DNA from: Elainellaceae cyanobacterium
GTDB taxonomy: Bacteria > Cyanobacteriota > Cyanobacteriia > CAKZMO01
Length of the DNA: 64,000 bases
Direction of reading: 5' to 3'
Assembly: GCA_050330955.1 (NCBI GenBank)
Contig: JBHJHJ010000003.1
Coordinates: forward strand, 2,484 to 66,483
The notes under the pieces are model-generated. The model was not told the DNA's origin and searched no databases. It saw only the letters and a program-made list of their open reading frames with translations. This document shows positions 7,228 through 20,970 of the stretch, piece after piece (the first letter of the stretch is position 1; every line of letters starts with the position of its first letter). Both the position numbers and the translations under genes were made by a program.

Positions 7228-7942
7228 TAAGTTGCTAAAGCAGGCGATCGCAAATCGCTTGAGTATCAAGAGCCGATGAAGATTGGCTAAACCGGAACGT
7301 AACTCAGGTCACTTCGGAGCACATGGTAGCTTTACATACTTGCAGCCATGCGTGAAATATGTAAGGGTGTGGGCAAGTACGAACAATCAATATTTTTTGA
7401 TTCAGCTTGATGGGGCTTGAGTTGAAAAGGGTCGTTTACCTGCACATTTAGTCGCCCTGTATCACTAGCCTCCCAAAGGAGCTTTAAAGAAAGAAGGCTT
7501 TCAGAGAAATTACACGCGAAATACATCCCTCTGGAAACATAATCTGAAACGCCGCGTCAATCAACTCGTTACAACATTCAAAATATTCCCGTCAAACGTT
7601 TATGAAGCCATGGAGCAGAGCTGTAGAACTGCGTAAGCCTGCATGCTGCACCTTTGCGCAATGAGCTATGTTGTTCGACGTATGGTGAATGACTTTACTC
7701 TTTAAAACGCCAATAGATGTCCATGGCTTGCCTATAAGTTTTCCGGGAAGAAAGTTTTGCGATACATCATCTAATTAGCGGTTCATTCTACGACCTCTCT
7801 AACAGACGAGTGCGAAAGGAGTAGATTGTACTATTTACAGAATGATGTTTTGTGGTGCCTACCTGACAGACGATTCCAACTTCTATCAGTCTATGAACGA
7901 CTGAATATTTGTCTGTGCACCAACTCATCAGGAATTTAATTC

Positions 7943-10900
7943 ATGCTAGAAACTACAAGTAATCTTCAGTCAACTGGAACAAATATGGCAATGCATAGCT
8001 CAGACATGAACGGTACTCAAACTGTGCTTTGGTCTGATGCTAGCGAGTGGCTGGGCTTTACACCCAAAGATGGAGACGACGTTACGATTCCAACGGGGCT
8101 AAAGGTAATCCTTGATCAAGACACACCAGAGCTTGGAACACTCGCAATAAATGGTATTTTAGAGTTTGATCAAAAAGACCTTAAATTGACGGCTGACAAC
8201 GTGCTCGTTTTTGGTGAAATGGCAGCGGGCAGTGAAGAAAACCCGCACACTCACAAAACAGAAATCGTTCTCACAGGTAAATCGACCGATCCAGACGTAG
8301 TACTGGCCGATTGGATGGGTGAAGGCCATGGCATGCACGACAGCATGGACGGTGGTGAACACGCTAACCACATGACCAGTCCCATCAATAACAAGGCAGT
8401 TATTGTTGCCCCTGGCGGTAAGCTAAATTTGCACGGCGCTGAGGTAGATAGCTGGACTCAGCTGGATTCTACTGCGAATGCTGGCGATACGTCGATTACT
8501 CTTGCCGAAATCCCCGCAGGTTGGAACGTGGGAGATGCGATCGCCATTGCCCCAACTGATTTCAGCGTCTTCGAAGTTGAAGAACGGACTATCGCAAAAA
8601 TTGAGGGCTCTACTGTATTCTTTGAAGAGCCTCTAGAGTATCGTCACTATGGTGAGCAACAAGATTTAGGAAACGGCAAAGTGCTTGACATGCGGGCAGA
8701 GGTAACAAACCTCACCCGAAACATCAGCATCACTGGCTCTGACGAAGGCGAAAGTCAAATTCTAGACACTCAAAGCGAGCATCCAGACTACTATGCCCGC
8801 GCTGGCTATGGCGGCCATACAGTGTATTTAACAGGCGCAGAGGTAAAGATTGATGGTGTTGAATTCAACGGTCTAGGAAATTCAGGGGAATTAGGCAATT
8901 ACCCTGTACACTTCCATCACACAGGCGATGCCAGTGGCTCCTATGTCAAAAACTCATCGGTTCACCATACATTCCAGCGTGGCTTAGTCGTTCATCGGGC
9001 AGACAACCTACTGATTGAAGGCAATACGATCTTCGAAACGATGAGCCACAGCTACTACATTGAAGACGGGGTAGAAACGGGCAATCGATTTGTCGATAAT
9101 TTAGCCATGATGCCGCGTATGACGGCTGAGGCTTTTCGGATTGACAGCGAAAAGAAATCCCCAGAGCGCCCGACGGGCTTTTGGATTACTAACCAAACTA
9201 ATGCTTTTGAGGGGAATCACGCCGTAGGCATTCGAGGGGGCCAAGGCTTCTGGTTTAACGATCCCGACAAAGTTTCGGGCACAGGATTAGCAAGGAAAAA
9301 AGATACGCCGCTGCTTCAGTTTGAGGGAAACACAGCTCATACAATCAATTTCGACCGAGTTGAAGGCTTGGGCTATCCTCCTAAGTGGACAGGAATTGCA
9401 CTTGATATCGGTAAATCGTTCGATAATCATCCAGATAGTGCACCCATCAAAGACTTCACTGCCTGGAAAATCGGAAACATGGGAATTACGATTGGCCACG
9501 GAGATGAAGTAGATATCGAGAATCCGATAATCGCAGAAACGAGGGTATTTCTTCACACCAAGGACGGCGATCCTCTAAAGATTGTCGAGCCAACTTTTGT
9601 CGCCGAAACAGAAAATACTGTTGAGGGACGTGACATTCGCAGTATATTTCCCAATCACCCTAAGCCGGTCATGGTGGAAGCTGCACGACCCACTGAATTG
9701 GTTGACGCTACCATCATCGGCGCAGATCAACTGGTTGAGTCTTCATCGAGACCCAAGCATGAGGGTAATCTAACTGTCACGCTTGCTGAGAGTAATGGCA
9801 CCTCAGAGGAAACCGTAGAAGAGAGCGATACGGCTGAGCCTGCTGACGATGCGGCTGAAAGTCCACAGGATGCCACTTCACTCGATCTCGATAACGAGGA
9901 TATGGCTGCGGACAATGGCGGCGAGATGCAACCCGAGGAGGATTTTGCGTCAGAGATACCCAATTTAGAAACATCAAGCCCCGAAATGCCGTCTTCAGAA
10001 TCCGATAATCCAACAGGAGAAAATGGTTTGATGAAATTTTATCTTATCAATGCTGAGACAAATCAACTCATTAAACCGCTAACTTCGGGCGAGAGTGTTG
10101 ACCCAAATGCGATCGCAGCAAAAGAATTTTCTATCGTTGCAGAGCCCGACGCCGGTGTCTTTAACCAAGTCGGGAGCATCAAATTTTTCCTTAACGGTAA
10201 GGCGGTCAAAACGGAAAATACGCCTCCATATGCCCTGTTCGGCGATAGGAGTGGAGACTTTCATGGAGAGGCGTTCGAAGATGGCGCTTTTACTCTTGAA
10301 GTAGAAGCCTACAGTGGTCCAGACGGGACTGGTGATAAGCTTGTTGCTGCTGAGTTAACTTACGATGTAGCTGTAGGCACACCAGATACTACCGCACCAG
10401 ATTCAGGTAACACGGCGGTAGACACTGACGGCAGTGACCAACCTACTGAAAATCCTGAGCCAGAGGCGCCCAACACTGACGGCGATGCGGTTACAGACGA
10501 AAGCGCTGAGCCGACAGAGGGCGATGTGGATGGCAGCGTGGATATGCCCACCCAGACTGACGGTGAAGCAGGTGGTGCAACCGACGGCGCTGACGATTCG
10601 CCTACTGATGGTTCGCCTACTTCCGAGGTACCTGCTGAACCAGATACCTCAGGGTCAGAATCTGGTGGCGGTTTGAAGCTTTACCTGGTAGATGCCGGCA
10701 CAGATGAAATCATTGAAGAGCTAACCTCTGGCAAGTCCATCGACGCCGATACCACTGGTGCAGACGAGTTTTCCATCATTGCCGTCCCAGACAGCAGCCA
10801 GGTTGAGAGCGTAAAATTCTTCCTCAATGGTCAGGAAGTTAGGACTGAGAATACCCCTCCCTATGCGCTTTTTGGAGATACCGACGGAAACTTCCGTGGG

Positions 10901-13360
10901 GAGCTACTCGAAGATGGCGCCTTTACCGTTGCGGCAGAGGCTTACAGCGGACAAAATGCCACAGGTGAGAAGCTAAGTGAAGTTGAGCTAAGTTATGAAG
11001 TGAGCGGAGCAGCAGCCCCAACCAGCTCTGCCCCGATCGCTGAAACGCCTACAGAAGGCGGCGGCACTCCGACCACTCCAGAAGATGGCATCGACACTGG
11101 GTCTGGCGATCTAGGCGCAGACCCCACCCCGCCCACGACAAACCCCGACGCGCTGGTCAGTCAGTTTGACCACATCGTCTCGCACTTTGATGGCAACAAT
11201 AGAGACACTGACGACATTGCTGCGCTGCCCATCGCGGCTGCCTTAACCAACGCCAGTGGGTTGCAGGATAAGTCAACCTTCTTCTACGGCAACAACATTG
11301 GTGAGCCGAATATCGAGAGACAGGTTGAGGACATGCGCGCCAGCGCGGCGTTTGCCGAGAAGCTGGGGATCAAAACCCACGACTACCAATCTGGATTGAA
11401 TCAAACCACCGATGAGCTGGTGAAAATCTTCAACTCCGGGCAGAAGGTCCTTGTTTTGGAAGGGGGCCGCATGGAAATGACCTATCGGGCCTTCGAGAAG
11501 ACCGATCCAGACAAGATTAAGAACATCACGCTGCTCTCCCACTCCACCAACAACGAAAACTACACCAGAAATGGCAGCCGGACCTGGAGCGATTTGAAGG
11601 CCGACTTCCCGGAGGCCACGTTCATCGATATCGAGAATCAGAATGGGACAAACGATAGAAATGGCTTTAACAGCTCCAAGTGGAACTGGTTGGACAGCAC
11701 CAGTGACCCACTGCTTCAAGAGCTACGAGAGCACATGCTGGAGGCAGGCCGTAAGTACAATGAAGACAAATTCAACGACCCCTCTGATGCGGGTATGCAC
11801 TTCTTCGCCATCACTGGCAATGAGAATGGCGATCCGCTTGACGCAAAAGCTTTCTTAGAGGCTAACCCACCGTCCTTCACTTCCTCCCCACAATCTACAC
11901 CTGTATCTACGCCCGAACCTAGCCCCGAACCCGTACCAGTGCCGACATCCACTGACACAAGCTCAGATTCACTCGTCTTCATGGCTGAAAATGGTCAAGT
12001 GGTTATCGAGGCTGAGAACACCGAGCTGCAGGGCCACTGGACACCCAGAATGGTCGACGGGGAAGACACGGTACTGTGGGATCCGGCTTACAGTAAGGCG
12101 GCACGGGGTGAAGCTGGAGAGACGCTCTCCTACTCGTTTGTCACTGACGAGGCAGGTGATTACAATCTTGCCATGCGCTTCGGACGAGTCAAAGACGCCA
12201 TGAGCGATCGCGACCTACTGGAAAACGGCCAAGAGCGTACTGACACGGGCAACGATTCGTACATCTCACTGATCAACGCAGAGACAGGGGAAGTGATTCA
12301 GGACCAGGTCAAGGCATCGACTTACCTAGGCAGGTCTGACGAGGAGCTCAAGTGGGGAACCACCATTTCTGTCAATCACCAGAAATCGCCAGCGACGTTC
12401 AAGCTGGATGCGAACACCGAGTATCGCCTAGAGGTTACTGGCCGCTCGGATGGCTATGCCCTAGACCGAATTACCCTCAGCACTGATGGATTCCTCACTG
12501 ATGCAAACGTCCCTCAGTCGAGTACTCAGGTTGGTGCGAACGACACTGCTGTGCTGTCGTCCGGCCCGGCTAGTGCATCACCTGCTTTGTCCACTGTTGA
12601 GTCAGTCTCTCCTGAGTTCTCTGATTCGAACAGCGATTTCGCTGCAAGCGAACTCTCGCAGGAGGTACTAGAGCTTACCAACGCGTTCCGGGCCAAGAAT
12701 GGTCTTGCTCCCCTATCGCTCAATCAAGACCTCACCGAAGCGGCCCAAGACCATGTGCAAGATATGGCCGAGGGAGATTTCTTCAGCCATACCGGCCTGG
12801 ATGAGTCCACCATCGTTGACCGGGTTCAGGAAGCCGGATACATGCCTCAAACTGTGGGTGAGAACATTGCTGCGGGACAAATCACGGCAGAAGAGGTTGT
12901 GCAGGCCTGGATTGACAGCCCTGGCCACCGGGCTAATCTACTCAACGACCAGTTCACTGAGATTGGCATTGGCTACGCGTTCCTAGAGAACGACACGGGC
13001 AGCGTCAACTACAACCACTACTGGGGACAGGCCTTTGGGCAGAGTAGCGAGGCGAGTGACTTTGGCGCAGTACCTCAGAGCAGCGGCGATTTTGTCCGCG
13101 CCATGGCTGAGGCTGGGTTCAGCGGCGGCATGGGCTCGATGGGTGATGCTACTGGTGGTGGACAGACCTCAACCTTTGAGAGCAGCTATGGTCTAGCAAA
13201 TCTTGAGAGTGCAAGCGAACTTCAGGGTGCTGAGCTGTTCAGCGTCTCTGAAGGCATCGGTAACCAGACCGAAACGCATCAAGATGAACTGACGGCAGCG
13301 CATATCTGTGGAACCATGGCGGCATTCCCCATGCCTGAGGTAGACAGCCTGGCTGCCTAA
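7943..13360 (+). CDS. Giant (1805 aa) multidomain extracellular-type protein: G8 domain, parallel beta-helix, acidic linkers, 2 tandem repeat domains, CBM-like domain, C-terminal CAP (SCP/PR-1, YkwD-like) domain
   Basis: Single uninterrupted ORF. N-terminal G8-like pattern (W..W..P..GDDVTIP..LKVILD..LGTL.INGILEF). PbH1-like repeats (NSSVHHTFQRGLVVHRADNLLIEGNTIFET). Two ~110-aa repeats (..KFFLNG..VKTENTPPYALFGD..). CAP signature at the C-terminus (GHRANLL..; YWGQAFG). No N-terminal signal peptide is seen. GC is visibly lower than in the flanking genes. Confidence 0.8.
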   Translation: MLETTSNLQSTGTNMAMHSSDMNGTQTVLWSDASEWLGFTPKDGDDVTIPTGLKVILDQDTPELGTLAINGILEFDQKDLKLTADNVLVFGEMAAGSEENPHTHKTEIVLTGKSTDPDVVLADWMGEGHGMHDSMDGGEHANHMTSPINNKAVIVAPGGKLNLHGAEVDSWTQLDSTANAGDTSITLAEIPAGWNVGDAIAIAPTDFSVFEVEERTIAKIEGSTVFFEEPLEYRHYGEQQDLGNGKVLDMRAEVTNLTRNISITGSDEGESQILDTQSEHPDYYARAGYGGHTVYLTGAEVKIDGVEFNGLGNSGELGNYPVHFHHTGDASGSYVKNSSVHHTFQRGLVVHRADNLLIEGNTIFETMSHSYYIEDGVETGNRFVDNLAMMPRMTAEAFRIDSEKKSPERPTGFWITNQTNAFEGNHAVGIRGGQGFWFNDPDKVSGTGLARKKDTPLLQFEGNTAHTINFDRVEGLGYPPKWTGIALDIGKSFDNHPDSAPIKDFTAWKIGNMGITIGHGDEVDIENPIIAETRVFLHTKDGDPLKIVEPTFVAETENTVEGRDIRSIFPNHPKPVMVEAARPTELVDATIIGADQLVESSSRPKHEGNLTVTLAESNGTSEETVEESDTAEPADDAAESPQDATSLDLDNEDMAADNGGEMQPEEDFASEIPNLETSSPEMPSSESDNPTGENGLMKFYLINAETNQLIKPLTSGESVDPNAIAAKEFSIVAEPDAGVFNQVGSIKFFLNGKAVKTENTPPYALFGDRSGDFHGEAFEDGAFTLEVEAYSGPDGTGDKLVAAELTYDVAVGTPDTTAPDSGNTAVDTDGSDQPTENPEPEAPNTDGDAVTDESAEPTEGDVDGSVDMPTQTDGEAGGATDGADDSPTDGSPTSEVPAEPDTSGSESGGGLKLYLVDAGTDEIIEELTSGKSIDADTTGADEFSIIAVPDSSQVESVKFFLNGQEVRTENTPPYALFGDTDGNFRGELLEDGAFTVAAEAYSGQNATGEKLSEVELSYEVSGAAAPTSSAPIAETPTEGGGTPTTPEDGIDTGSGDLGADPTPPTTNPDALVSQFDHIVSHFDGNNRDTDDIAALPIAAALTNASGLQDKSTFFYGNNIGEPNIERQVEDMRASAAFAEKLGIKTHDYQSGLNQTTDELVKIFNSGQKVLVLEGGRMEMTYRAFEKTDPDKIKNITLLSHSTNNENYTRNGSRTWSDLKADFPEATFIDIENQNGTNDRNGFNSSKWNWLDSTSDPLLQELREHMLEAGRKYNEDKFNDPSDAGMHFFAITGNENGDPLDAKAFLEANPPSFTSSPQSTPVSTPEPSPEPVPVPTSTDTSSDSLVFMAENGQVVIEAENTELQGHWTPRMVDGEDTVLWDPAYSKAARGEAGETLSYSFVTDEAGDYNLAMRFGRVKDAMSDRDLLENGQERTDTGNDSYISLINAETGEVIQDQVKASTYLGRSDEELKWGTTISVNHQKSPATFKLDANTEYRLEVTGRSDGYALDRITLSTDGFLTDANVPQSSTQVGANDTAVLSSGPASASPALSTVESVSPEFSDSNSDFAASELSQEVLELTNAFRAKNGLAPLSLNQDLTEAAQDHVQDMAEGDFFSHTGLDESTIVDRVQEAGYMPQTVGENIAAGQITAEEVVQAWIDSPGHRANLLNDQFTEIGIGYAFLENDTGSVNYNHYWGQAFGQSSEASDFGAVPQSSGDFVRAMAEAGFSGGMGSMGDATGGGQTSTFESSYGLANLESASELQGAELFSVSEGIGNQTETHQDELTAAHICGTMAAFPMPEVDSLAA

Positions 13361-13424
13361 TTCAAGAGCCTGAGGAAGGTGCTTCCTTGTACTAAAAGGC
13401 GATCGCCTTCTGATTTTTGACAGC

Positions 13425-13460
13425 GTGAGCCCCCCTCTAGCGGATTAGAGGGGGGCTCAC
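13425..13460. promoter_or_regulatory. Perfect 15-bp-stem hairpin between the giant gene and phnI
   Basis: GTGAGCCCCCCTCTA gcggat TAGAGGGGGGCTCAC. A TTGACA hexamer lies just upstream at about 13414. It could be a terminator for the giant gene and/or a regulatory structure for the phn-like operon. Confidence 0.4.
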
Positions 13461-13542
13461 GTCGTAAAGTAGTAGTCATCCCGTGACATCTCAAATGCGA
13501 TGACACAATAGACATACATCCCCAACACCCTCCCGCCAACCC

Positions 13543-14706
13543 ATGCCCTACGTAGCCGTCAAAGGTGGCGATCGCGCCATACAAAACGCTGAGGCTCTGC
13601 TCAAGGCCCGCCGCCGCGGGGATACTAGCGTACCCGAGCTATCCCTAAAACAAATTAAGCAGCAGATGCACCTGGCCATAAATCGGGTCATGGCCGAGGG
13701 CAGCCTCTACGACCCGGACTTAGCGGCCCTGGCTATCAAGCAATCCTGGGGCGATTTAGTGGAAGCCGCTTTCCTCCTGCGGGCCTACCGCACCACCCTG
13801 CCGCGCCTCTACTACAGCCAGTCGCTAGACACCAGCCAAATGCACCTACAGCGGCGCATCTCAGCAATATTTAAAGACGCCCCCGGCGGCCAGATGCTAG
13901 GCCCTACCTTCGACTATGTGCATCGCCTATTGGACTTCAAGCTAGCGGCGGAAGGAAATGCTGCTGTGCCGCCCAGAACAGGCACCGCCTCAAACGGGGC
14001 TACCCCCCGCGTCGCCGATATCCTGCGGCAAGAGGACCTGATTCAGCCCGCCGCAGCGCCGCAGGAGTCAACGCCCTTCGACCTCACCCGCCATTCTCTC
14101 ACCACCCCTACCCGCCGAGACGCGCGGCTGCAAAACCTAGCCCGAGCCGACGAGGGCTTCTTGCTGGGGCTGGCCTACTCCACCCAGCGGGGCTACGGCA
14201 AAAACCATCCCTTCGCTGGGGAGATTCGCGTAGGAGAAGTGGAGGTGGTGCTCTGCCCCGAGGAGCTGGGGTTTGAGGTGGCGATCGCCGACATCACAGT
14301 AACCGAGGTGCAGATGGTGAACCAATTTACGGGCAACAAGGATACCCCGCCCCAGTTCACCCAGGGCTACGGCCTCACCTTTGGCTACACCGCGCGCAAG
14401 GCCATGGCTATGGCGCTAGTGGACCGGGCGCTGCAGGCTAAAGACCTGGGAGAAGCGATAGATGGTCCCGCCCAGGACGAGGAGTTTGTGCTCTACCACT
14501 CCGACAATGTAGAGGCCCAAGGTTTTGTACAGCACCTGAAGCTGCCCCACTACATCGATTTTCAGGCGGAGCTGAACGTGGTGCGCAAGATGCGGGCGGA
14601 CCACAACACCCAAAGTACCGGTGCCGTTCCGAGTAACGGCGATGCCCAAAGCAACAACGAGCTGGCAAAAGCGGCTCCCTACGACGGCGTGGAGTTCTTC
14701 GTGTGA
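13543..14706 (+). CDS. phnI: Carbon-phosphorus lyase complex subunit PhnI
   Basis: Near-colinear match to E. coli PhnI (MPYVAVKGGDRAIQNAEALL..RRRGDTSVPELS..; ..GEIRVGEVEVVLCPEELGFEV..; MAMALVDRALQA..AQDEEFVLYHSDNVEAQGFVQHLKLPHYIDFQAEL). Confidence 0.9.
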   Translation: MPYVAVKGGDRAIQNAEALLKARRRGDTSVPELSLKQIKQQMHLAINRVMAEGSLYDPDLAALAIKQSWGDLVEAAFLLRAYRTTLPRLYYSQSLDTSQMHLQRRISAIFKDAPGGQMLGPTFDYVHRLLDFKLAAEGNAAVPPRTGTASNGATPRVADILRQEDLIQPAAAPQESTPFDLTRHSLTTPTRRDARLQNLARADEGFLLGLAYSTQRGYGKNHPFAGEIRVGEVEVVLCPEELGFEVAIADITVTEVQMVNQFTGNKDTPPQFTQGYGLTFGYTARKAMAMALVDRALQAKDLGEAIDGPAQDEEFVLYHSDNVEAQGFVQHLKLPHYIDFQAELNVVRKMRADHNTQSTGAVPSNGDAQSNNELAKAAPYDGVEFFV

Positions 14707-15608
14707 TGCCTGATCCAACCCCCAAAGTACGGGCGAATGGCCATTCGCCCCGACCGGCTACCGCTACTACTGAACCCGGCTTCAACTTCGCCTACCTCGA
14801 CGAGCAAACCAAGCGCTCCATCCGCCGCGCCTTGCTCAAAGCCATTGCCATTCCCGGCCACCAGATCCCCTTCGGCTCTCGGGAGATGCCCATGCCCTAC
14901 GGCTGGGGCACCGGCGGCATCCAGGTCACCGCCTCAGTGATTGGCCAGACCGACATCTTCAAAGTGATCGACCAGGGGGCTGACGACACCACCAACGCCG
15001 TCAACATCCGCCGCTTCTTCCAAAAGGTATGCGGCGTCGAGACCACCGAACGCACCGAAGAGGCCACGCTGCTCCAAACCCGCCACCGCATCCCCGAAAC
15101 GCCGCTACGGGAAGGTCAAACGGTGGTGTACCAGGTGCCCATGCCCGAGCCCCTGTTCTTCATCGAGCCCTCTCGCACCGAGGCCAGCAAGATGCACGCC
15201 CTAGAAGAATACGGCCCCGTCTACGTGCGGCTCTACGAAGACATCACCCAGTACGGCCACATCGCCATGGCCTACGACTATCCCGTGGTGGTGCACGATC
15301 GCTACCTGATGAAGCCCAGCCCCATTCCCCGCTTCGACAACCCCAAGATGCATATGAGTCCGGCACTGCAGCTGTTCGGAGCGGGGCGGGAAAAGCGCAT
15401 CTACGCGGTGCCGCCCTACACCTCAGTGAAGAGTCTGGATTTTGAGGACTACCCGTTCACGGTAGAGCGCTGGGATAAGCCCTGCGCCATTTGTGGCTCG
15501 ACGGAGAGCTACCTAGATGAAGTGGTGACCGACGACCAGGGCGGTCGCATGTGGATCTGCTCGGATACGGACTACTGCAGCCAGCGACAGTCGAACGCTC
15601 CAGATTAG
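14706..15608 (+). CDS. phnJ: C-P lyase PhnJ (alpha-D-ribose-1-methylphosphonate-5-phosphate C-P lyase, radical SAM-like 4-Cys)
   Basis: FNFAYLDEQTKRSIRRALLKAIAIPGHQIPFGSREMPMPYGWGTGGIQ.., and the C-terminal Cys cluster CAICGSTESYLDEVV..ICSDTDYC. The ATG overlaps the phnI stop (TGATG). Confidence 0.9.
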   Translation: MPDPTPKVRANGHSPRPATATTEPGFNFAYLDEQTKRSIRRALLKAIAIPGHQIPFGSREMPMPYGWGTGGIQVTASVIGQTDIFKVIDQGADDTTNAVNIRRFFQKVCGVETTERTEEATLLQTRHRIPETPLREGQTVVYQVPMPEPLFFIEPSRTEASKMHALEEYGPVYVRLYEDITQYGHIAMAYDYPVVVHDRYLMKPSPIPRFDNPKMHMSPALQLFGAGREKRIYAVPPYTSVKSLDFEDYPFTVERWDKPCAICGSTESYLDEVVTDDQGGRMWICSDTDYCSQRQSNAPD

Positions 15609-15663
15609 GCGATACTTGAGAGAGCTTATTTGGCTAGCCCCTCCTGTAAATTTGTCGGATGCA

Positions 15664-16344
15664 ATGAGTCCACTCCTGCGAGCCCATCGCCTCCACAAGC
15701 GATTTATTCTGCACAACCACGGTACCGAAATCCCGGTGCTGGCAGGTACCAGCCTCACCGTAGAGGCGGGAGAATGCATTGCGCTGCAGGGCCCCTCAGG
15801 CTCCGGTAAATCTACCTTTATGCGATCGCTCTACGGCAACTATCGCGTTGACAGCGGCTCAGTGTGGGTCAGGCATGAAGATAAGTGGGTTGACATTCCC
15901 CAATTGCCTCCCCACGAACTGATCGCGGTGCGGCGGAGATCTTTGGGCTACGTCAGTCAGTTTCTGCGGGTGATTCCTCGGGTGCCGGCGCTGGACGTGG
16001 CCGCTGAACCGCTTGTCGCTTGGGGCGCCCCGCTGGAGGAGGCCCGTGAGCGAGTCGCCTGCCTGTTCGCCCAGCTCAATCTGCCGCGGCGGCTGTGGAT
16101 GCTGTCCCCCACCACCTTTTCCGGTGGGGAGAAGCAGCGGGTCAACATTGCCCGAGCTCTCGCGGTGCCCTACCCGGTGCTGCTGCTAGATGAACCCACT
16201 TCCGCCCTAGATGACGCCAACCGAGAGGTGGTCATTCGCCTGATGGAAGCCCGCCGCGCCCAGGGCTCTGCCTTGGTGGGCATTTTTCACGATCAGGCGG
16301 TGCGCGATCGCGTCTGTAACCGAACCTTAACGTTTGAAGGTTAG
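15664..16344 (+). CDS. phnL: C-P lyase pathway ABC-type ATPase PhnL
   Basis: Walker A GPSGSGKST, then WVDIP, then VSQFLRVIPRV, then signature FSGGEKQRVNIARAL, then LLLDEPTSALD, then GIFHD. This is the PhnL pattern, not PhnK. Start taken at MSPLLRAHRLHKRF. Confidence 0.85.
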   Translation: MSPLLRAHRLHKRFILHNHGTEIPVLAGTSLTVEAGECIALQGPSGSGKSTFMRSLYGNYRVDSGSVWVRHEDKWVDIPQLPPHELIAVRRRSLGYVSQFLRVIPRVPALDVAAEPLVAWGAPLEEARERVACLFAQLNLPRRLWMLSPTTFSGGEKQRVNIARALAVPYPVLLLDEPTSALDDANREVVIRLMEARRAQGSALVGIFHDQAVRDRVCNRTLTFEG

Positions 16345-16351
16345 AGTGATC

Positions 16352-17509
16352 ATGATCACAGCTCCAGCGACTATGACAGAACAGGTTCTGACCAACTATC
16401 GTCTGCAGCTCCCCGACCAAGAGGTGTTGGGTAGCCTGGTGGTGCGCGATGGCCGCATCGCCGACATTCAGCCCGGCGCAGTTTCCCAGGGGCAAGACGG
16501 GGGCGGGGATTACCTGCTGCCAGGCTTTGTGGAGCTGCACACCGACAATCTAGAGCAGTGTATGTCGCCTCGGCCCAGCGTGATGTGGCCGATGGACATG
16601 GCTGTGGTGCACCACGACCGGGAGCTGGCGGGGGCAGGCATCACAACGGTGTGTGACGCGATCGCCATCGGGGACGTGCTGCCCAACTCGGTGCGTATGA
16701 CCCAGTTCGATCCTATGATCGACGCCCTCAGCGGGGCGCAGCAGGCCGGACGCTTGGCGGTGGATCACCGCCTGCACCTGCGGTGTGAGCTGGGCTATGA
16801 AAACACCCACGACATTGTTGAGCGCTACGCCACCCACCCCCTGCTGACCCTGATGTCCCTGATGGACCACACGCCGGGGCAGCGCCAGTTTGCCAAAGTG
16901 GAGAAATACAAGGCGTATTATGTGGGTAAACACGGGGTCAGCCCCGAAGAAATGGACGACTTTATCCAAAAGCGCATCGAAGATCAGCGGCTTCACGCCC
17001 AGACCAACCGGCAGAAGCTGGCGCGGCTTGCTCGCACCCACGACATTGCTCTTGCGAGCCACGACGACGCCACGGTGGACCACGTGCAAGAGGCCATCGA
17101 TGACGGCGCGGCGATCGCCGAGTTTCCGACGACGCTGGACGCAGCTAAATCCGCCCACCGCCACGGCCTACAGATTTTGATGGGGGCTCCCAACTTAGTG
17201 CTGGGGGGCTCCCAATCGGGGAACGTCTCAGCGATGACGCTGATCGAGCACGGGCTAGTGGACTTGATTTCCTCAGACTATGTGCCCCAGAGCCTGCTGC
17301 AGGCGGTTTTTGTCATTGCCCAGCGTGGGGTGCTGCCTCTGCATGACGCGGTGAAGCTGGTGACCCTCAACCCCGCGAAAGCGATTGAGCTGGATGGCGA
17401 TCGCGGCAGCCTCGCGGTTGGCAAGCGGGCAGATTTTATCACCGTGCACCACGACGGCACCGTGCCCAGACTCACTAGCGTCAGCCGACAGGGAAGGCGT
17501 ATTGCCTGA
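16352..17509 (+). CDS. phnM: PhnM (ribose-1-methylphosphonate-5-triphosphate diphosphatase, amidohydrolase fold)
   Basis: LLPGFVELHTDNLE, ITTVCDAIAIGDV, HRLHLRCE, LMDHTPGQRQF, ALASHDDAT, EFPTT, and MGAPNLVLGGSQSGNVSA all align with E. coli PhnM. It is translationally coupled to phnL. Confidence 0.85.
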   Translation: MITAPATMTEQVLTNYRLQLPDQEVLGSLVVRDGRIADIQPGAVSQGQDGGGDYLLPGFVELHTDNLEQCMSPRPSVMWPMDMAVVHHDRELAGAGITTVCDAIAIGDVLPNSVRMTQFDPMIDALSGAQQAGRLAVDHRLHLRCELGYENTHDIVERYATHPLLTLMSLMDHTPGQRQFAKVEKYKAYYVGKHGVSPEEMDDFIQKRIEDQRLHAQTNRQKLARLARTHDIALASHDDATVDHVQEAIDDGAAIAEFPTTLDAAKSAHRHGLQILMGAPNLVLGGSQSGNVSAMTLIEHGLVDLISSDYVPQSLLQAVFVIAQRGVLPLHDAVKLVTLNPAKAIELDGDRGSLAVGKRADFITVHHDGTVPRLTSVSRQGRRIA

Positions 17510-17522
17510 CTCTAAACCAGTT

Positions 17523-18116
17523 TTGAGCTCAGACCCATCTCCATCAGGCTTCTCTGGCGCCGACGGCGATACGCTAATACCGCTGATTCTTTACGCCTGC
17601 CCCACTGGCCCGCTGGCCCAGCAGCTTGAGGTGTACTTTGAGCGCAGTCGGGTCCGCTATGGCCCCAATAAGGCCCATGCCTATATGCCTCACTGCACCC
17701 TAACCGGCTTTTTCCACGACGGGGCAGTCACCATTTCGGCCTATCTGCGCGCGATCGATGCGGCTCTAAACCAGCTGGAGCCCCCGCCGCGCCCCGTAGC
17801 CCGCGTGAGCGCGATGGCCTTCCATGCAGATTGGCACGGGCTTGTGGTCGAAGCGCCCTGGCTCAAGCGGCTAACGGCTCAGTTTGCTGAACTGGCGCCC
17901 TCGCCGCCCAATGAGGCACTGCGGCTTAAAGACTGGCTTCACGTCAGCCTGGCCTACGGGTTTGACCCAGCCCAGAATAATGACCTGCGCGAGCTGGCTC
18001 AGGCCCTAGTTGACCCTGAGACCCCCGCCGGCTGGGAGCTTCGGTTCTACCAGCGTCAGTCCGCTTGGATATGCCAGCAGAGCTGGACCCTCGAAGATAC
18101 GTTTCAACAGCAGTAA
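17523..18116 (+). CDS. 2H-family (LigT/CPDase-like) cyclic phosphodiesterase
   Basis: Two H-x-T/S-x motifs at the expected spacing (MPHCTLTGFF ... LHVSLAYGF). The ORF-track start at 17385 overlaps phnM in another frame. The true start is probably the TTG at 17523 or a nearby alternative, so it remains uncertain. Confidence 0.5.
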   Translation: MSSDPSPSGFSGADGDTLIPLILYACPTGPLAQQLEVYFERSRVRYGPNKAHAYMPHCTLTGFFHDGAVTISAYLRAIDAALNQLEPPPRPVARVSAMAFHADWHGLVVEAPWLKRLTAQFAELAPSPPNEALRLKDWLHVSLAYGFDPAQNNDLRELAQALVDPETPAGWELRFYQRQSAWICQQSWTLEDTFQQQ

Positions 18117-18139
18117 ACCCTAAACCAGGATTTTTCGCA

Positions 18140-18718
18140 ATGATTACGATCGATACCCTCATGATCACCCTCCGCGACCGGGGCGGCAGCCAATACGGCA
18201 GTGAGTCGGTGACCTACCTGGAGCATGCGTTGCAATGTGCCGCCCTCGCTCAGCAGAACAGTGAGTCGGACGCTCTGGTCGCAGCTTGCCTGCTCCACGA
18301 CATTGGACATATGCTGCACGAGCTTGGGGAAGACGTCGCACAGCAGGGGATCAATGACCGCCACGAACATCTGGCGCCGCGCTATCTCGCTTCCCTGTTT
18401 GGCCCAGCGGTCACCGAGCCGATTCGGCTTCACGTTCAGGCCAAGCAATATCTGTGCGCCATCAACAAGCGGTATTGGGACTCCCTCTCGCCAGCATCAC
18501 AAACGAGCCTAGAGCTGCAGGGGGGCATATTCTCCAAGGCCGACGCGAAGCGATTTATCTATCAGCGCTACGCCCCCGACGCCGTGAAGCTCCGTCTTTG
18601 GGATGATCAGGCTAAGGTCAGCGGACACAAAACCCCTGGTTTGGATCACTTTTTACCTGTCTTGCAGGCCTGTTACCTGTGCGATCGCGCCCATCAAAGT
18701 GCTCCTCTGGCGCTCTAG
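18140..18718 (+). CDS. HD-domain protein of the phosphonate-operon-associated clade (PhnZ-like, Phn_HD)
   Basis: YLEHALQCAALAQ..ACLLHDIGH HD motif in a ~190-aa protein, and its placement directly after phn genes. Start taken at MITIDTLMITL rather than the overlapping upstream start. Confidence 0.6.
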   Translation: MITIDTLMITLRDRGGSQYGSESVTYLEHALQCAALAQQNSESDALVAACLLHDIGHMLHELGEDVAQQGINDRHEHLAPRYLASLFGPAVTEPIRLHVQAKQYLCAINKRYWDSLSPASQTSLELQGGIFSKADAKRFIYQRYAPDAVKLRLWDDQAKVSGHKTPGLDHFLPVLQACYLCDRAHQSAPLAL

Positions 18719-19452: not shown

Positions 19453-20970
19453 CTAAGTCAACCGACGACTTAGAAAATAGGTCTCCACAAGCCCCACGCC
19501 TTGGATGGTGGCATCCCCCCGCTGCTCAAACTCAAATTGCTCCCGCAGGGCGTGATACACCTCAGCCGTGACTTGAATCTTGCCCGGTATGCTGGTTTCC
19601 TCCATCCGACTGGCAATATTGACCGTATGGCCCCAGAGATCGAAAGCATAGGTTTTTTTCCCAATGACGCCCGCCACGACCGGACCAGAATGAAAGCCAA
19701 TGCGGATTTTGAAGTTTTTCCCGCTGGGTCTAGAAAACTGGGATATGGCCCTCTGCATGTCTAGGGCGAGATCAGCGATCGCCTGTAGGTGATTTGGCTG
19801 ATGGGACGAGACGTTGGCGCCCACCATGTAGGCGTCTCCAATTGTTTTAATTTTCTCTAGGCTATACCGCTCTACCAGACCATCGAAGATAGAGAAAATT
19901 TCGTTTAGCACTGTGACGACCGCCTTTGGCTCTGTCTTGGCCGCAAAGTGGGTAAAGTTCACAATGTCTGCAAATAAGACGCTCGCAGATTCAATGCTGT
20001 CAGCGATCGCATCAGGCCGACGCTTTAGACGCTGAACGACGGAAAGCGGCAGCATGTTCTGAATCAGGTTCTCCGCTCGCTGGCGCTCTTGCTTCAGCAT
20101 CTGCTCAAACTCGATGCGCTCGGTAATGTCTTGGGTCGTCCCTTCGTAATACTGCAGGTGACCTGCTACATCTCGTACCTCTCGTACGTTCTCGCTAACC
20201 CAAATGCGAGAGCCGTCTTTGCGGTAAACCTGAGAGACAGCGTCCATTACCTTTCCAGTCTGCTGTAGGTATACTACTAGCTCTAGCCGCCGCTTGGGCT
20301 GGACATAAATCTGCCGCCCGATATCCTGGGTACATTGAATCAATTCTTCAGGCGAGTCGTAGCCGTAGATTTGAGCCAGGGCCGGGTTGACGGTGATAAA
20401 CTGACCGGAGGCCGTGGACTGAAAAATTCCCTCGCTGGCAGATTCAAAGATGTTACGGTACTTTGACTCTGCGAGCTGACGATTGCGAACTTCTTGCCTG
20501 AGCTGGATATTCTTCGCCTCCAATAGTCTCGCCTGATACTGGGTCTGCTGCTGGAGATGATAAATCTGTAAGTGGGTCTGAACCCGAGCCACCACTTCCG
20601 CTGCCTGAAACGGCTTACTGATATAGTCAATTCCCCCCAAGCTCAGGCCTTTGACCTTATCTTCCGTTGCGCTTAGGGCACTGACGAAGATAATCGGAAT
20701 CGCTTTGAGCGCTGAATCCAGCTTGAATCGGTGGCAGACGTCGTAGCCGCTCATTTCCGGCATATTCACGTCGAGCAGGACCAAATCTGGGGGAGATTCA
20801 GTGGCGCTGCGCAAAGCCGCGGCACCACTCAAAGCTTTACGGATTTGATAGCCCTCAGGCTTTAAAATCTTGGTCAATACCTGAATGTTGTCTACTACGT
20901 CATCCACAATCAGAATCGTGGCTGATGTGATAGCGTCATCAACGCCCATAGGTTCCAGGGAAGTGGTCAT
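19453..20970 (-). CDS. Response regulator receiver - PAS - class III adenylate/guanylate cyclase
   Basis: REC (ILIVDD..LVLLDVNMPEMSG..K), coiled coil, PAS (IFQSTASGQFITVNPA), and CYCc (FADIVNFT..GDAYMV..GFHSGPVVAGVIG..FDLWGHTVNIASRME). Confidence 0.8.
   Translation of the reverse strand: MTTSLEPMGVDDAITSATILIVDDVVDNIQVLTKILKPEGYQIRKALSGAAALRSATESPPDLVLLDVNMPEMSGYDVCHRFKLDSALKAIPIIFVSALSATEDKVKGLSLGGIDYISKPFQAAEVVARVQTHLQIYHLQQQTQYQARLLEAKNIQLRQEVRNRQLAESKYRNIFESASEGIFQSTASGQFITVNPALAQIYGYDSPEELIQCTQDIGRQIYVQPKRRLELVVYLQQTGKVMDAVSQVYRKDGSRIWVSENVREVRDVAGHLQYYEGTTQDITERIEFEQMLKQERQRAENLIQNMLPLSVVQRLKRRPDAIADSIESASVLFADIVNFTHFAAKTEPKAVVTVLNEIFSIFDGLVERYSLEKIKTIGDAYMVGANVSSHQPNHLQAIADLALDMQRAISQFSRPSGKNFKIRIGFHSGPVVAGVIGKKTYAFDLWGHTVNIASRMEETSIPGKIQVTAEVYHALREQFEFEQRGDATIQGVGLVETYFLSRRLT

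Follow-up and report, generated by a model that had tools for sequence, protein, structure and literature searches.

C–P lyase is the main bacterial route to phosphonate phosphorus, and in oxic waters it turns methylphosphonate into methane; environmental surveys commonly take phnJ, or a contiguous phnG–M cluster, as the mark of the pathway. In Escherichia coli the genes form the unit phnGHIJKLM(NOP), and genetics and biochemistry in that organism indicate that PhnG, PhnH and PhnK are needed (PMC3840354; PMC9947105). In vitro formation of the ribosyl-phosphonate triphosphate requires PhnG, PhnH and PhnL together with PhnI (PMC9947105; PMC3840354). The residues of PhnJ on which PhnK docks have been defined in E. 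coli, and the PhnJ replacements E149A or Y158A prevent growth on phosphonate (PMC9947105). Cryo-electron microscopy of the E. coli proteins places the N-terminal hairpin of PhnL (residues 7–14) in contact with PhnK, with PhnL bound atop PhnK and not on the core complex (PMC9947105). In clusters without phnP, a 2H phosphoesterase in place of PhnP has already been described (PMC3840354, citing Huang et al. 2005). Here we consider a 64-kb stretch of DNA (referred to below as the window) from a metagenome-assembled genome (MAG) of an Elainellaceae cyanobacterium, in which positions 13543–18718 carry six tightly packed, intact genes on one strand, phnI-phnJ-phnL-phnM followed by genes for a 2H phosphoesterase and an HD-domain protein, with no phnG, phnH or phnK. 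We favor, at roughly even odds (a probability of about 0.5), the reading that this locus is one piece of a dispersed C–P lyase gene set, with PhnG, PhnH and PhnK supplied in trans.

Set against the E. coli system, the PhnI, PhnJ, PhnL and PhnM of the window are clear orthologues (46–74% identity, key residues kept), whereas PhnG, PhnH, PhnK, PhnCDE, PhnF, PhnN, PhnO and PhnP are missing throughout the 64 kb, a 2H protein replaces PhnP, and an HD protein is added. Clusters of the Leptolyngbya/Elainellales type, in which a divergent phnF precedes phnGH(O)IJKLM(M2)-2H-HD (related loci L041, L050, L084 and L087), have I, J, L, M, 2H and HD in the same order and orientation, with 63–84% identity to the window for the core proteins and 43–61% for the accessories, but they also possess G, H, (O), K, a second PhnM paralogue and a divergent phnF/Pho-box promoter that the window lacks. 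Split clusters that stop after phnI, phnJ or phnK (GHI, GHIJ or GHIJK), together with lone phnK genes (L093–L095), resemble the window in that intact, conserved genes are not contiguous; the split clusters, however, keep the 5′ part (G, H and promoter), whereas the window keeps the internal and 3′ part and is also missing the internal K.

The PhnI of the window is 100% identical to NCBI MGF1534873.1, a MAG entry annotated as PhnI [Elainellaceae cyanobacterium] and encoded on a 75,999-bp contig. The HIP1 octamer GCGATCGC occurs 90 times in the window (1.4 copies per kb), and the window is cyanobacterial by this count. As the source is a MAG, a genome-wide absence test for phnG, phnH and phnK is weak in principle.

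An intact core without phnG, phnH and phnK

All of the genes described in this section lie on the forward (+) strand. The first, phnI (13543..14706, 387 amino acids), matches Pfam PF05861 at 530.8 bits, and phnJ (14706..15608, about 300 amino acids) matches PF06007 at 492.5 bits. The next gene, phnL (15616..16344), would encode 242 amino acids from a TTG at 15616, with an alternative ATG at 15664, and scores 322.4 bits against NCBIfam TIGR02324 (cut-off 256.3). Finally, phnM (16352..17509), for the alpha-D-ribose 1-methylphosphonate 5-triphosphate diphosphatase, scores 502.8 bits against TIGR02318 (cut-off 390.55), in an open reading frame (ORF) that opens at TTG 16334. The original prediction, made from the letters of the window without database searches, held that the four proteins align end to end with their E. 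coli counterparts, and tblastn against the K-12 proteins bears this out: identity is 58% for PhnI (residues 2–352), 74% for PhnJ and 51% for PhnL (both end to end), and 46% for PhnM (residues 2–377).

The residues expected of working enzymes are in place. PhnI retains the zinc-site histidines H328 and H333 (E. coli numbering) and carries four substitutions at near-invariant columns (E9D, I234L, N280T and E281A). PhnJ retains the glycyl-radical residue G32 and the cysteines C241, C244, C266 and C272, and its C-terminus is ordinary when compared with relatives. The PhnK-docking residues of PhnJ are likewise retained (E149, Y158, D226, D/E228, here E228, and D229), unchanged from those of cyanobacterial clusters that include phnK. 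PhnL retains its catalytic Walker-B glutamate, E175. To place these sequences among their homologues, we scored each protein by its departures from alignment columns with a conservation of 80% or more. There are 9 departures in PhnI (rank 14 of 81), 8 in PhnJ (rank 12 of 74) and 12 in PhnM (rank 16 of 49), and on this measure the three are no more deviant than many sequences taken from complete clusters. PhnL shows 16 departures at a median of 4 for its alignment (rank 1 of 56, the most divergent), and the HD protein shows 11 (rank 1 of 42, again the most divergent). Taken together, the retained genes show no decay, and conservation of the core is good; the higher divergence of PhnL and of the HD protein could reflect an isolated lineage or some relaxed constraint.

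The departures in PhnL include a local change of potential relevance to PhnK. The turn that follows the N-terminal beta-hairpin (about residues 31–40; window positions 15700–15740) reads FILHNHGTEIPVL, for a consensus of F(V/I)LHxQGGxxxPVL. Gln16, invariant in the other 55 sequences, is replaced by His, and the same turn carries a one-residue deletion. The protein nevertheless covers positions 2–222 of the 224 in the PhnL model and has a PhnL-type N-terminus, and we rejected a K/L chimera on this match to the complete PhnL model and the PhnL-like N-terminus.

That phnI-phnJ-phnL-phnM occur here without phnG, phnH, phnK, a transporter, a regulator, phnN or phnP, as originally predicted, was confirmed over the full 64 kb by two kinds of search. 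In tblastn with the E. coli proteins, PhnC, D, F, G, H, K, N, O and P were all without a match. Cyanobacterial PhnG and PhnH are picked up by these queries at 1e-20 to 1e-32, so the sensitivity of this search is adequate. We also built lineage hidden Markov models (HMMs) from 126 PhnG, 132 PhnH, 101 PhnK, 42 PhnO and 74 PhnF sequences, mostly cyanobacterial, and ran them with filters off (hmmsearch --max) against all six-frame segments of at least 20 amino acids in the window. PhnG, H, K, O and F were found in none of these segments; the only matches were of the PhnK model to PhnL and, weakly, of the PhnH model to its homologue PhnJ. Pseudogene debris of G, H or K was also absent from the spacers and other frames of the 64 kb. 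Between phnJ and phnL, the position that phnK would occupy, there are only 7 nucleotides (nt).

The junctions within the unit are correspondingly tight. The stop codon of phnI overlaps the ATG of phnJ at 14706 (TGATG). From the phnJ stop to the phnL start there are 7 nt if TTG 15616 is used, or 55 nt if ATG 15664 is used, and 7 nt separate the phnL stop from the phnM ATG at 16352. The predicted translational coupling of the four genes hinges, at J/L and L/M, on which start codon is used. Over the roughly 5.2 kb of the six ORFs there are zero frameshifts or internal stops, the sign of decay for which the original prediction proposed to look. As it also stated, phnI follows closely upon an unrelated gene for an 1805-amino-acid protein, which ends at 13360 and leaves a spacer of 182 nt.

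Downstream of phnM lies a gene for a 2H phosphoesterase (17523..18116), identified by its motifs HCTL and HVSL (H-x-T/S-x) and by its position 3′ of phnM. Its likely start, TTG 17523, is uncertain: the ORF is open from 17385, and homology begins at about 17583 with no ATG or GTG nearby. The protein has a weak match to Pfam 2_5_RNA_ligase2 (E 7.9e-4, below the cut-off) and shares 43–52% identity with ORFs that lie 3′ of phnM at 10 of 80 genome loci. It is likely a substitute for PhnP. Like the 2H ("RcsF") substitute described earlier (Huang et al. 2005; Martinez et al. 2013, PMC3840354), it has two motifs and sits at the 3′ end of a cluster without phnP; action of the window's own subfamily on 5-phosphoribosyl 1,2-cyclic phosphate is only predicted, with the Pfam match below threshold.

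The sixth gene (18140..18718; ORF opening at 18065, likely start ATG 18140) encodes a PhnZ-like HD-domain protein, probably of the phosphonate-operon-associated family. It contains the HD motif, matches Pfam HD, and scores 214.1 bits against TIGR03276, the phosphonate-operon HD-domain oxygenase family, just under the cut-off of 214.6. At 42 of the 80 genome loci, the phn cluster ends in an ORF 51–61% identical to it. The original prediction took the 2H and HD genes for a substitute processing module that goes with the reduced cluster. The emphasis of this idea is misplaced: the loci that carry their homologues 3′ of phnM (10 and 42 of 80) have canonical core genes, and the two genes are ordinary accessories of complete cyanobacterial clusters. 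At the related locus L084, for example, G H I J K L M M2 is followed by a 180-amino-acid ORF without a Pfam match in the 2H position and then by HD. PhnPP is a different, PHP-family enzyme. We considered it as a name for the 2H protein and rejected it; phnPP provides an alternative route from the cyclic phosphate product (PMC8774927).

Related loci, split clusters and an orphan phnK

We compared the window with a set of 166 loci containing phnI, 80 of them drawn from species-representative genomes, 80 from metagenomes and a few from protein look-ups. Among the 125 loci (window included) with at least 1.5 kb of sequence 5′ of phnI, phnH is present in 124 and phnG in 123, and the window alone lacks both. 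A phnJ with phnL farther downstream occurs at 102 loci, again counting the window, and 101 of them have phnK between the two; the window is the sole exception. The arrangement of the window is unique among the 166 loci, and the metagenome scan gave no second IJLM locus. Given this uniqueness among related loci, the state of the window is a derived, lineage-specific loss or rearrangement, and not a recurrent architecture. Two further candidates for J–L loci without phnK (L163 and L164) were rejected as ORF-calling artefacts. The only other locus without one of phnG and phnH is L067, from a Trichodesmium sp. MAG, where, in the stretch of about 6 kb upstream of phnI, PhnH is encoded and PhnG was not detected by phmmer or the lineage HMM.

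The nearest relatives of the window's PhnI are 81% identical (in a database of 5.8 billion proteins) and belong to G-H-(O)-I-J-K-L-M clusters (L085 and L087) or to a G-H-I fragment (L086); the genome collection holds no PhnI copy more than 80% identical to that of the window. The last of these relatives is one instance of a wider pattern. At least 11 related loci have clusters split after phnI, phnJ or phnK. A split after phnJ is seen at L033, L039, L042, L044, L068, L104 and L107, where 4–9 kb of unrelated genes then follow; a split after phnK at L089/L090 and L123; and a split after phnI at L086. C–P lyase clusters of filamentous cyanobacteria are often split, at differing points, and the rest of the genes lie elsewhere. 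At L086, a gene of the major-royal-jelly/yellow (MRJP) family overlaps the phnI stop, in the usual position of phnJ.

A stand-alone phnK is also found in this family. The 261-amino-acid protein P0262 (NCBI MGF1499418.1, "PhnK [Elainellaceae cyanobacterium]") recurs in GCA_050331615.1 and two metagenomes of the Joint Genome Institute (JGI) (L093–L095; coordinates L093:8236–9021, and 7937–8722 in both L094 and L095). The gene lies 32 nt 3′ of a gene for a patatin-like phospholipase and is convergent with a gene for an ABC-2 permease; there is no further phn gene within 8–10 kb. One contig with this patatin–phnK pair is JBHJGR010000360.1. The orphan PhnK is 83% (BLASTP) or 81% (alignment) identical to the cluster-encoded PhnK of L035, retains all catalytic residues as well as the PhnJ-docking arginines and tyrosine, and shows fewer consensus departures than the median PhnK. 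These features show that a lone phnK under selection exists in the Elainellaceae, and it is just the partner that a K-less phnIJLM would need.

In tetranucleotide signature, compared between the window and 98 loci, the orphan-phnK contigs rank 1–3 of 98 in similarity to the window (r 0.72). With the phn regions masked they correlate at 0.70 and the next locus at 0.53; for 19-kb pieces of the window itself, r is 0.60–0.84. Such compositional closeness is not proof of the same organism.

Using as criterion three copies of YTTAAYYW in 11-nt phase with at least 19 of 24 matches, we found a Pho-box-like tri-repeat in the phnF–phnG spacer of 7 of 12 relatives (background in the window, 3 of 702 windows). 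The repeats (e.g., CTTAACCAAGGGTTAACCGCCTCTTAAATT) lie in the divergent phnF/phnG spacers of L087, L016, L025, L010, L076, L036 and L040. The 182-nt spacer before phnI in the window has no similarity to the upstream regions of phnI in relatives, and homology begins at the phnI start codon. The locus has lost the usual control region.

Weighing the readings of the locus

If the locus is one piece of a split gene set, the roles of its products would be the orthodox ones. PhnI would serve as the ribosyl-transfer/nucleosidase subunit with its zinc site, PhnJ as the radical-SAM, glycyl-radical enzyme that cuts the C–P bond, PhnL as an ABC ATPase and PhnM as the triphosphate diphosphatase; the 2H phosphoesterase would open the cyclic phosphate product in place of PhnP, and the HD protein would be an accessory. 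These proteins would assemble with PhnG and PhnH into the core complex (PhnG2H2I2J2) and with PhnK, which would dock on PhnJ and carry PhnL, while phnG, phnH and phnK would be encoded elsewhere, either as relocated single genes or at another phn locus. We infer both the presence of G, H and K in this genome and the expression of the locus. Several observations favor this reading: none of the four core proteins is shortened or has lost a catalytic residue, PhnJ has kept the surface on which PhnK docks, related cyanobacteria frequently split their clusters, and a conserved orphan phnK exists on contigs that are compositionally the nearest to the window. The unremarkable departure counts of PhnI, PhnJ and PhnM and the host-like HIP1 density and third-position GC content of the phn genes speak for it as well. 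The losses are, moreover, clean, with the phnJ stop and the PhnL N-terminus whole and no debris left behind, as would be expected if selection was acting on J, L and I at the time that K and GH departed. Of the two options in the original prediction, supply in trans and a reduced variant with a function of its own, the splits, the docking residues and the orphan phnK favor the first; the second gained no positive support.

A number of observations weigh against a split gene set. The 182-nt spacer contains neither a Pho-box-like tri-repeat nor a recognizable promoter (sigma-70 consensus). Protein searches for PhnH and PhnK returned nothing attributable to the same MAG, and the PhnH and PhnK candidates among unnamed NCBI or Logan matches all come from other assemblies or samples. 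The accession of the orphan PhnK lies about 35,000 away from that of the window's PhnI, and for this reason the orphan phnK is probably from another MAG; in addition, the JGI metagenomes that hold the orphan phnK contain no PhnI more than 81% identical to the window's, and no phnI loci from them appeared in the metagenome scan. PhnL, altered in the turn adjoining the hairpin that contacts PhnK in E. coli, is the most divergent member of its alignment, and so is the HD protein.

The main rival, less likely though it accounts for several of these points, is that the locus no longer functions and is what remains of a canonical phnGH(O)IJKLM cluster after truncation: rearrangement and deletion would have removed the 5′ end, the Pho-regulated promoter and phnK, with the remaining ORFs not yet disabled. 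An arrangement unique among 166 loci is what a recent accident would give, and the Pho-box-bearing phnF–phnG region is gone, with nothing similar 5′ of phnI and no transporter or regulator anywhere in the 64 kb. The top-ranking divergence of PhnL and HD, with PhnI, PhnJ and PhnM in or near the upper quartile, points in the same direction, as do the compositionally younger-looking 1805-amino-acid gene at the 5′ side and the need for G, H and K in E. coli. On the other hand, a stretch of about 5.2 kb has six ORFs free of frameshifts and stops, and all of the catalytic and PhnK-docking residues that we checked are intact. The precise excision of phnK, with J and L left whole 7 nt apart, would be improbable for a random deletion in a dead locus, and the divergence also fits an isolated, poorly sampled lineage, in which the nearest relative is about 80% identical.

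We consider it improbable that the locus is an extra, partial copy residing beside a complete phnGHIJKLM, from which it would borrow G, H and K, perhaps with another substrate range; this would be a special case of supply in trans. There are precedents for a pair of phn loci in some related cyanobacteria: in Leptolyngbya sp. FACHB-711, two unlike partial PhnH sequences (P0244 and P0252) fall into separate 90% clusters, which suggests two phn loci in one genome, and Nodularia has an additional truncated phnH–phnM locus (PMC3610870). Yet no second PhnI attributable to this MAG is found among the best 120 PhnI matches, and the window bears no sign of duplication.

Still less credible is a reduced C–P lyase in which PhnI, PhnJ, PhnL and PhnM would work without the PhnG/PhnH scaffold or PhnK, with PhnL re-adapted through its altered turn to act on PhnI/PhnJ. 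The genes kept are exactly those to which catalytic or ATPase activities are assigned (I, J, L and M), plus an analogue of PhnP; the ORFs are intact and tightly packed; and PhnL is uniquely altered in the turn next to its PhnK-contacting hairpin. However, the 166 loci contain no second example, the PhnK-docking residues of PhnJ are unchanged, PhnG and PhnH are required along with PhnL and PhnI for ribosyl-phosphonate triphosphate formation in vitro, and E. coli PhnL docks on PhnK and not on the core (PMC9947105; PMC3840354).

Least probable of all is an error of assembly or binning, such as a chimeric contig or a collapsed phnK. In its favor, the window comes from a MAG and the J–L junction is known from this one assembly. 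Against it, a separate Logan assembly contains the junction of the 1805-amino-acid gene with phnI at 99.95% identity, and there are no repeats at the junctions, no K/L hybrid, and uniform HIP1 frequency and third-position GC content (GC3) with the host contig.

The proteins of the window are orthodox, and scattering of the genes is the most probable explanation of the locus. In filamentous cyanobacteria, C–P lyase genes are frequently scattered (as GHI, GHIJ or GHIJK fragments, IJLM, or lone phnK), so that cluster-based calls will miss working systems and will also count non-working fragments. This is a warning for surveys in which C–P lyase activity is deduced from contiguous clusters or from phnJ by itself. 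If the fragment were active on its own, the minimal enzyme would be redefined, and phnG–M would no longer be the minimal catalytic unit; more probably, the locus is a natural case for the study of G, H and K supply in trans and of co-regulation without the usual Pho box.

Flanking genes and further observations

The gene upstream of phnI (7943..13360, +) encodes an 1805-amino-acid protein with Pfam matches to G8, CEMIP beta-helix, Big_7 and CAP domains; it is unrelated to phn genes and marks the 5′ breakpoint of the cluster. It is compositionally unlike its neighbors, with 3 HIP1 sites in 5.4 kb, a GC3 of 0.53 and a strong AT skew, and may be a recent arrival beside the breakpoint. In the 182-nt spacer that follows it, an inverted repeat forms a GC-rich hairpin (13417..13468, +; 23-nt arms, 6-nt loop, 87% complementary) that is terminator-like, without a T run. 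The independent support for this junction comes from the Logan assembly of run SRR6462985, in which a 1904-nt contig is 99.95% identical to window positions 13009–14912 and covers the end of the 1805-amino-acid gene, the spacer and phnI.

The phn genes themselves have 1.55 HIP1 copies per kb and a GC3 of 0.69–0.79. Because this HIP1 density and GC3 match the host window, the phn cluster is taken as a long-term resident. No flanking repeats were found at either junction (13360–13543 and J–L), and a mobile element or island was rejected on the lack of flanking repeats, tRNA genes or Rfam matches and on the host-like composition.

At the other end, a class III adenylate-guanylate cyclase gene with response-regulator receiver and PAS domains (19453–20970, −) converges on the end of the phn unit, from which about 730 nt of apparently non-coding DNA separate it, counted from the HD gene.

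Two features of the related clusters deserve mention beside the window's own genes. Many cyanobacterial clusters encode, in addition to PhnM, a further amidohydrolase that is a PhnM-like paralogue, whereas the window has the true PhnM only; the paralogue follows phnM at, for example, L014, L016–L018, L021–L025 and L084, and in Nostocales it sits between phnI and phnJ (L055, L060, L070, L072, L073, L080 and L081). Finally, PhnI is fused to a C-terminal MOSC domain (PF03473) at L039:10001–11656 (P0105, 551 amino acids), and similar long PhnI ORFs occur at L042, L051, L052 and L057, some of these clusters ending after phnJ.

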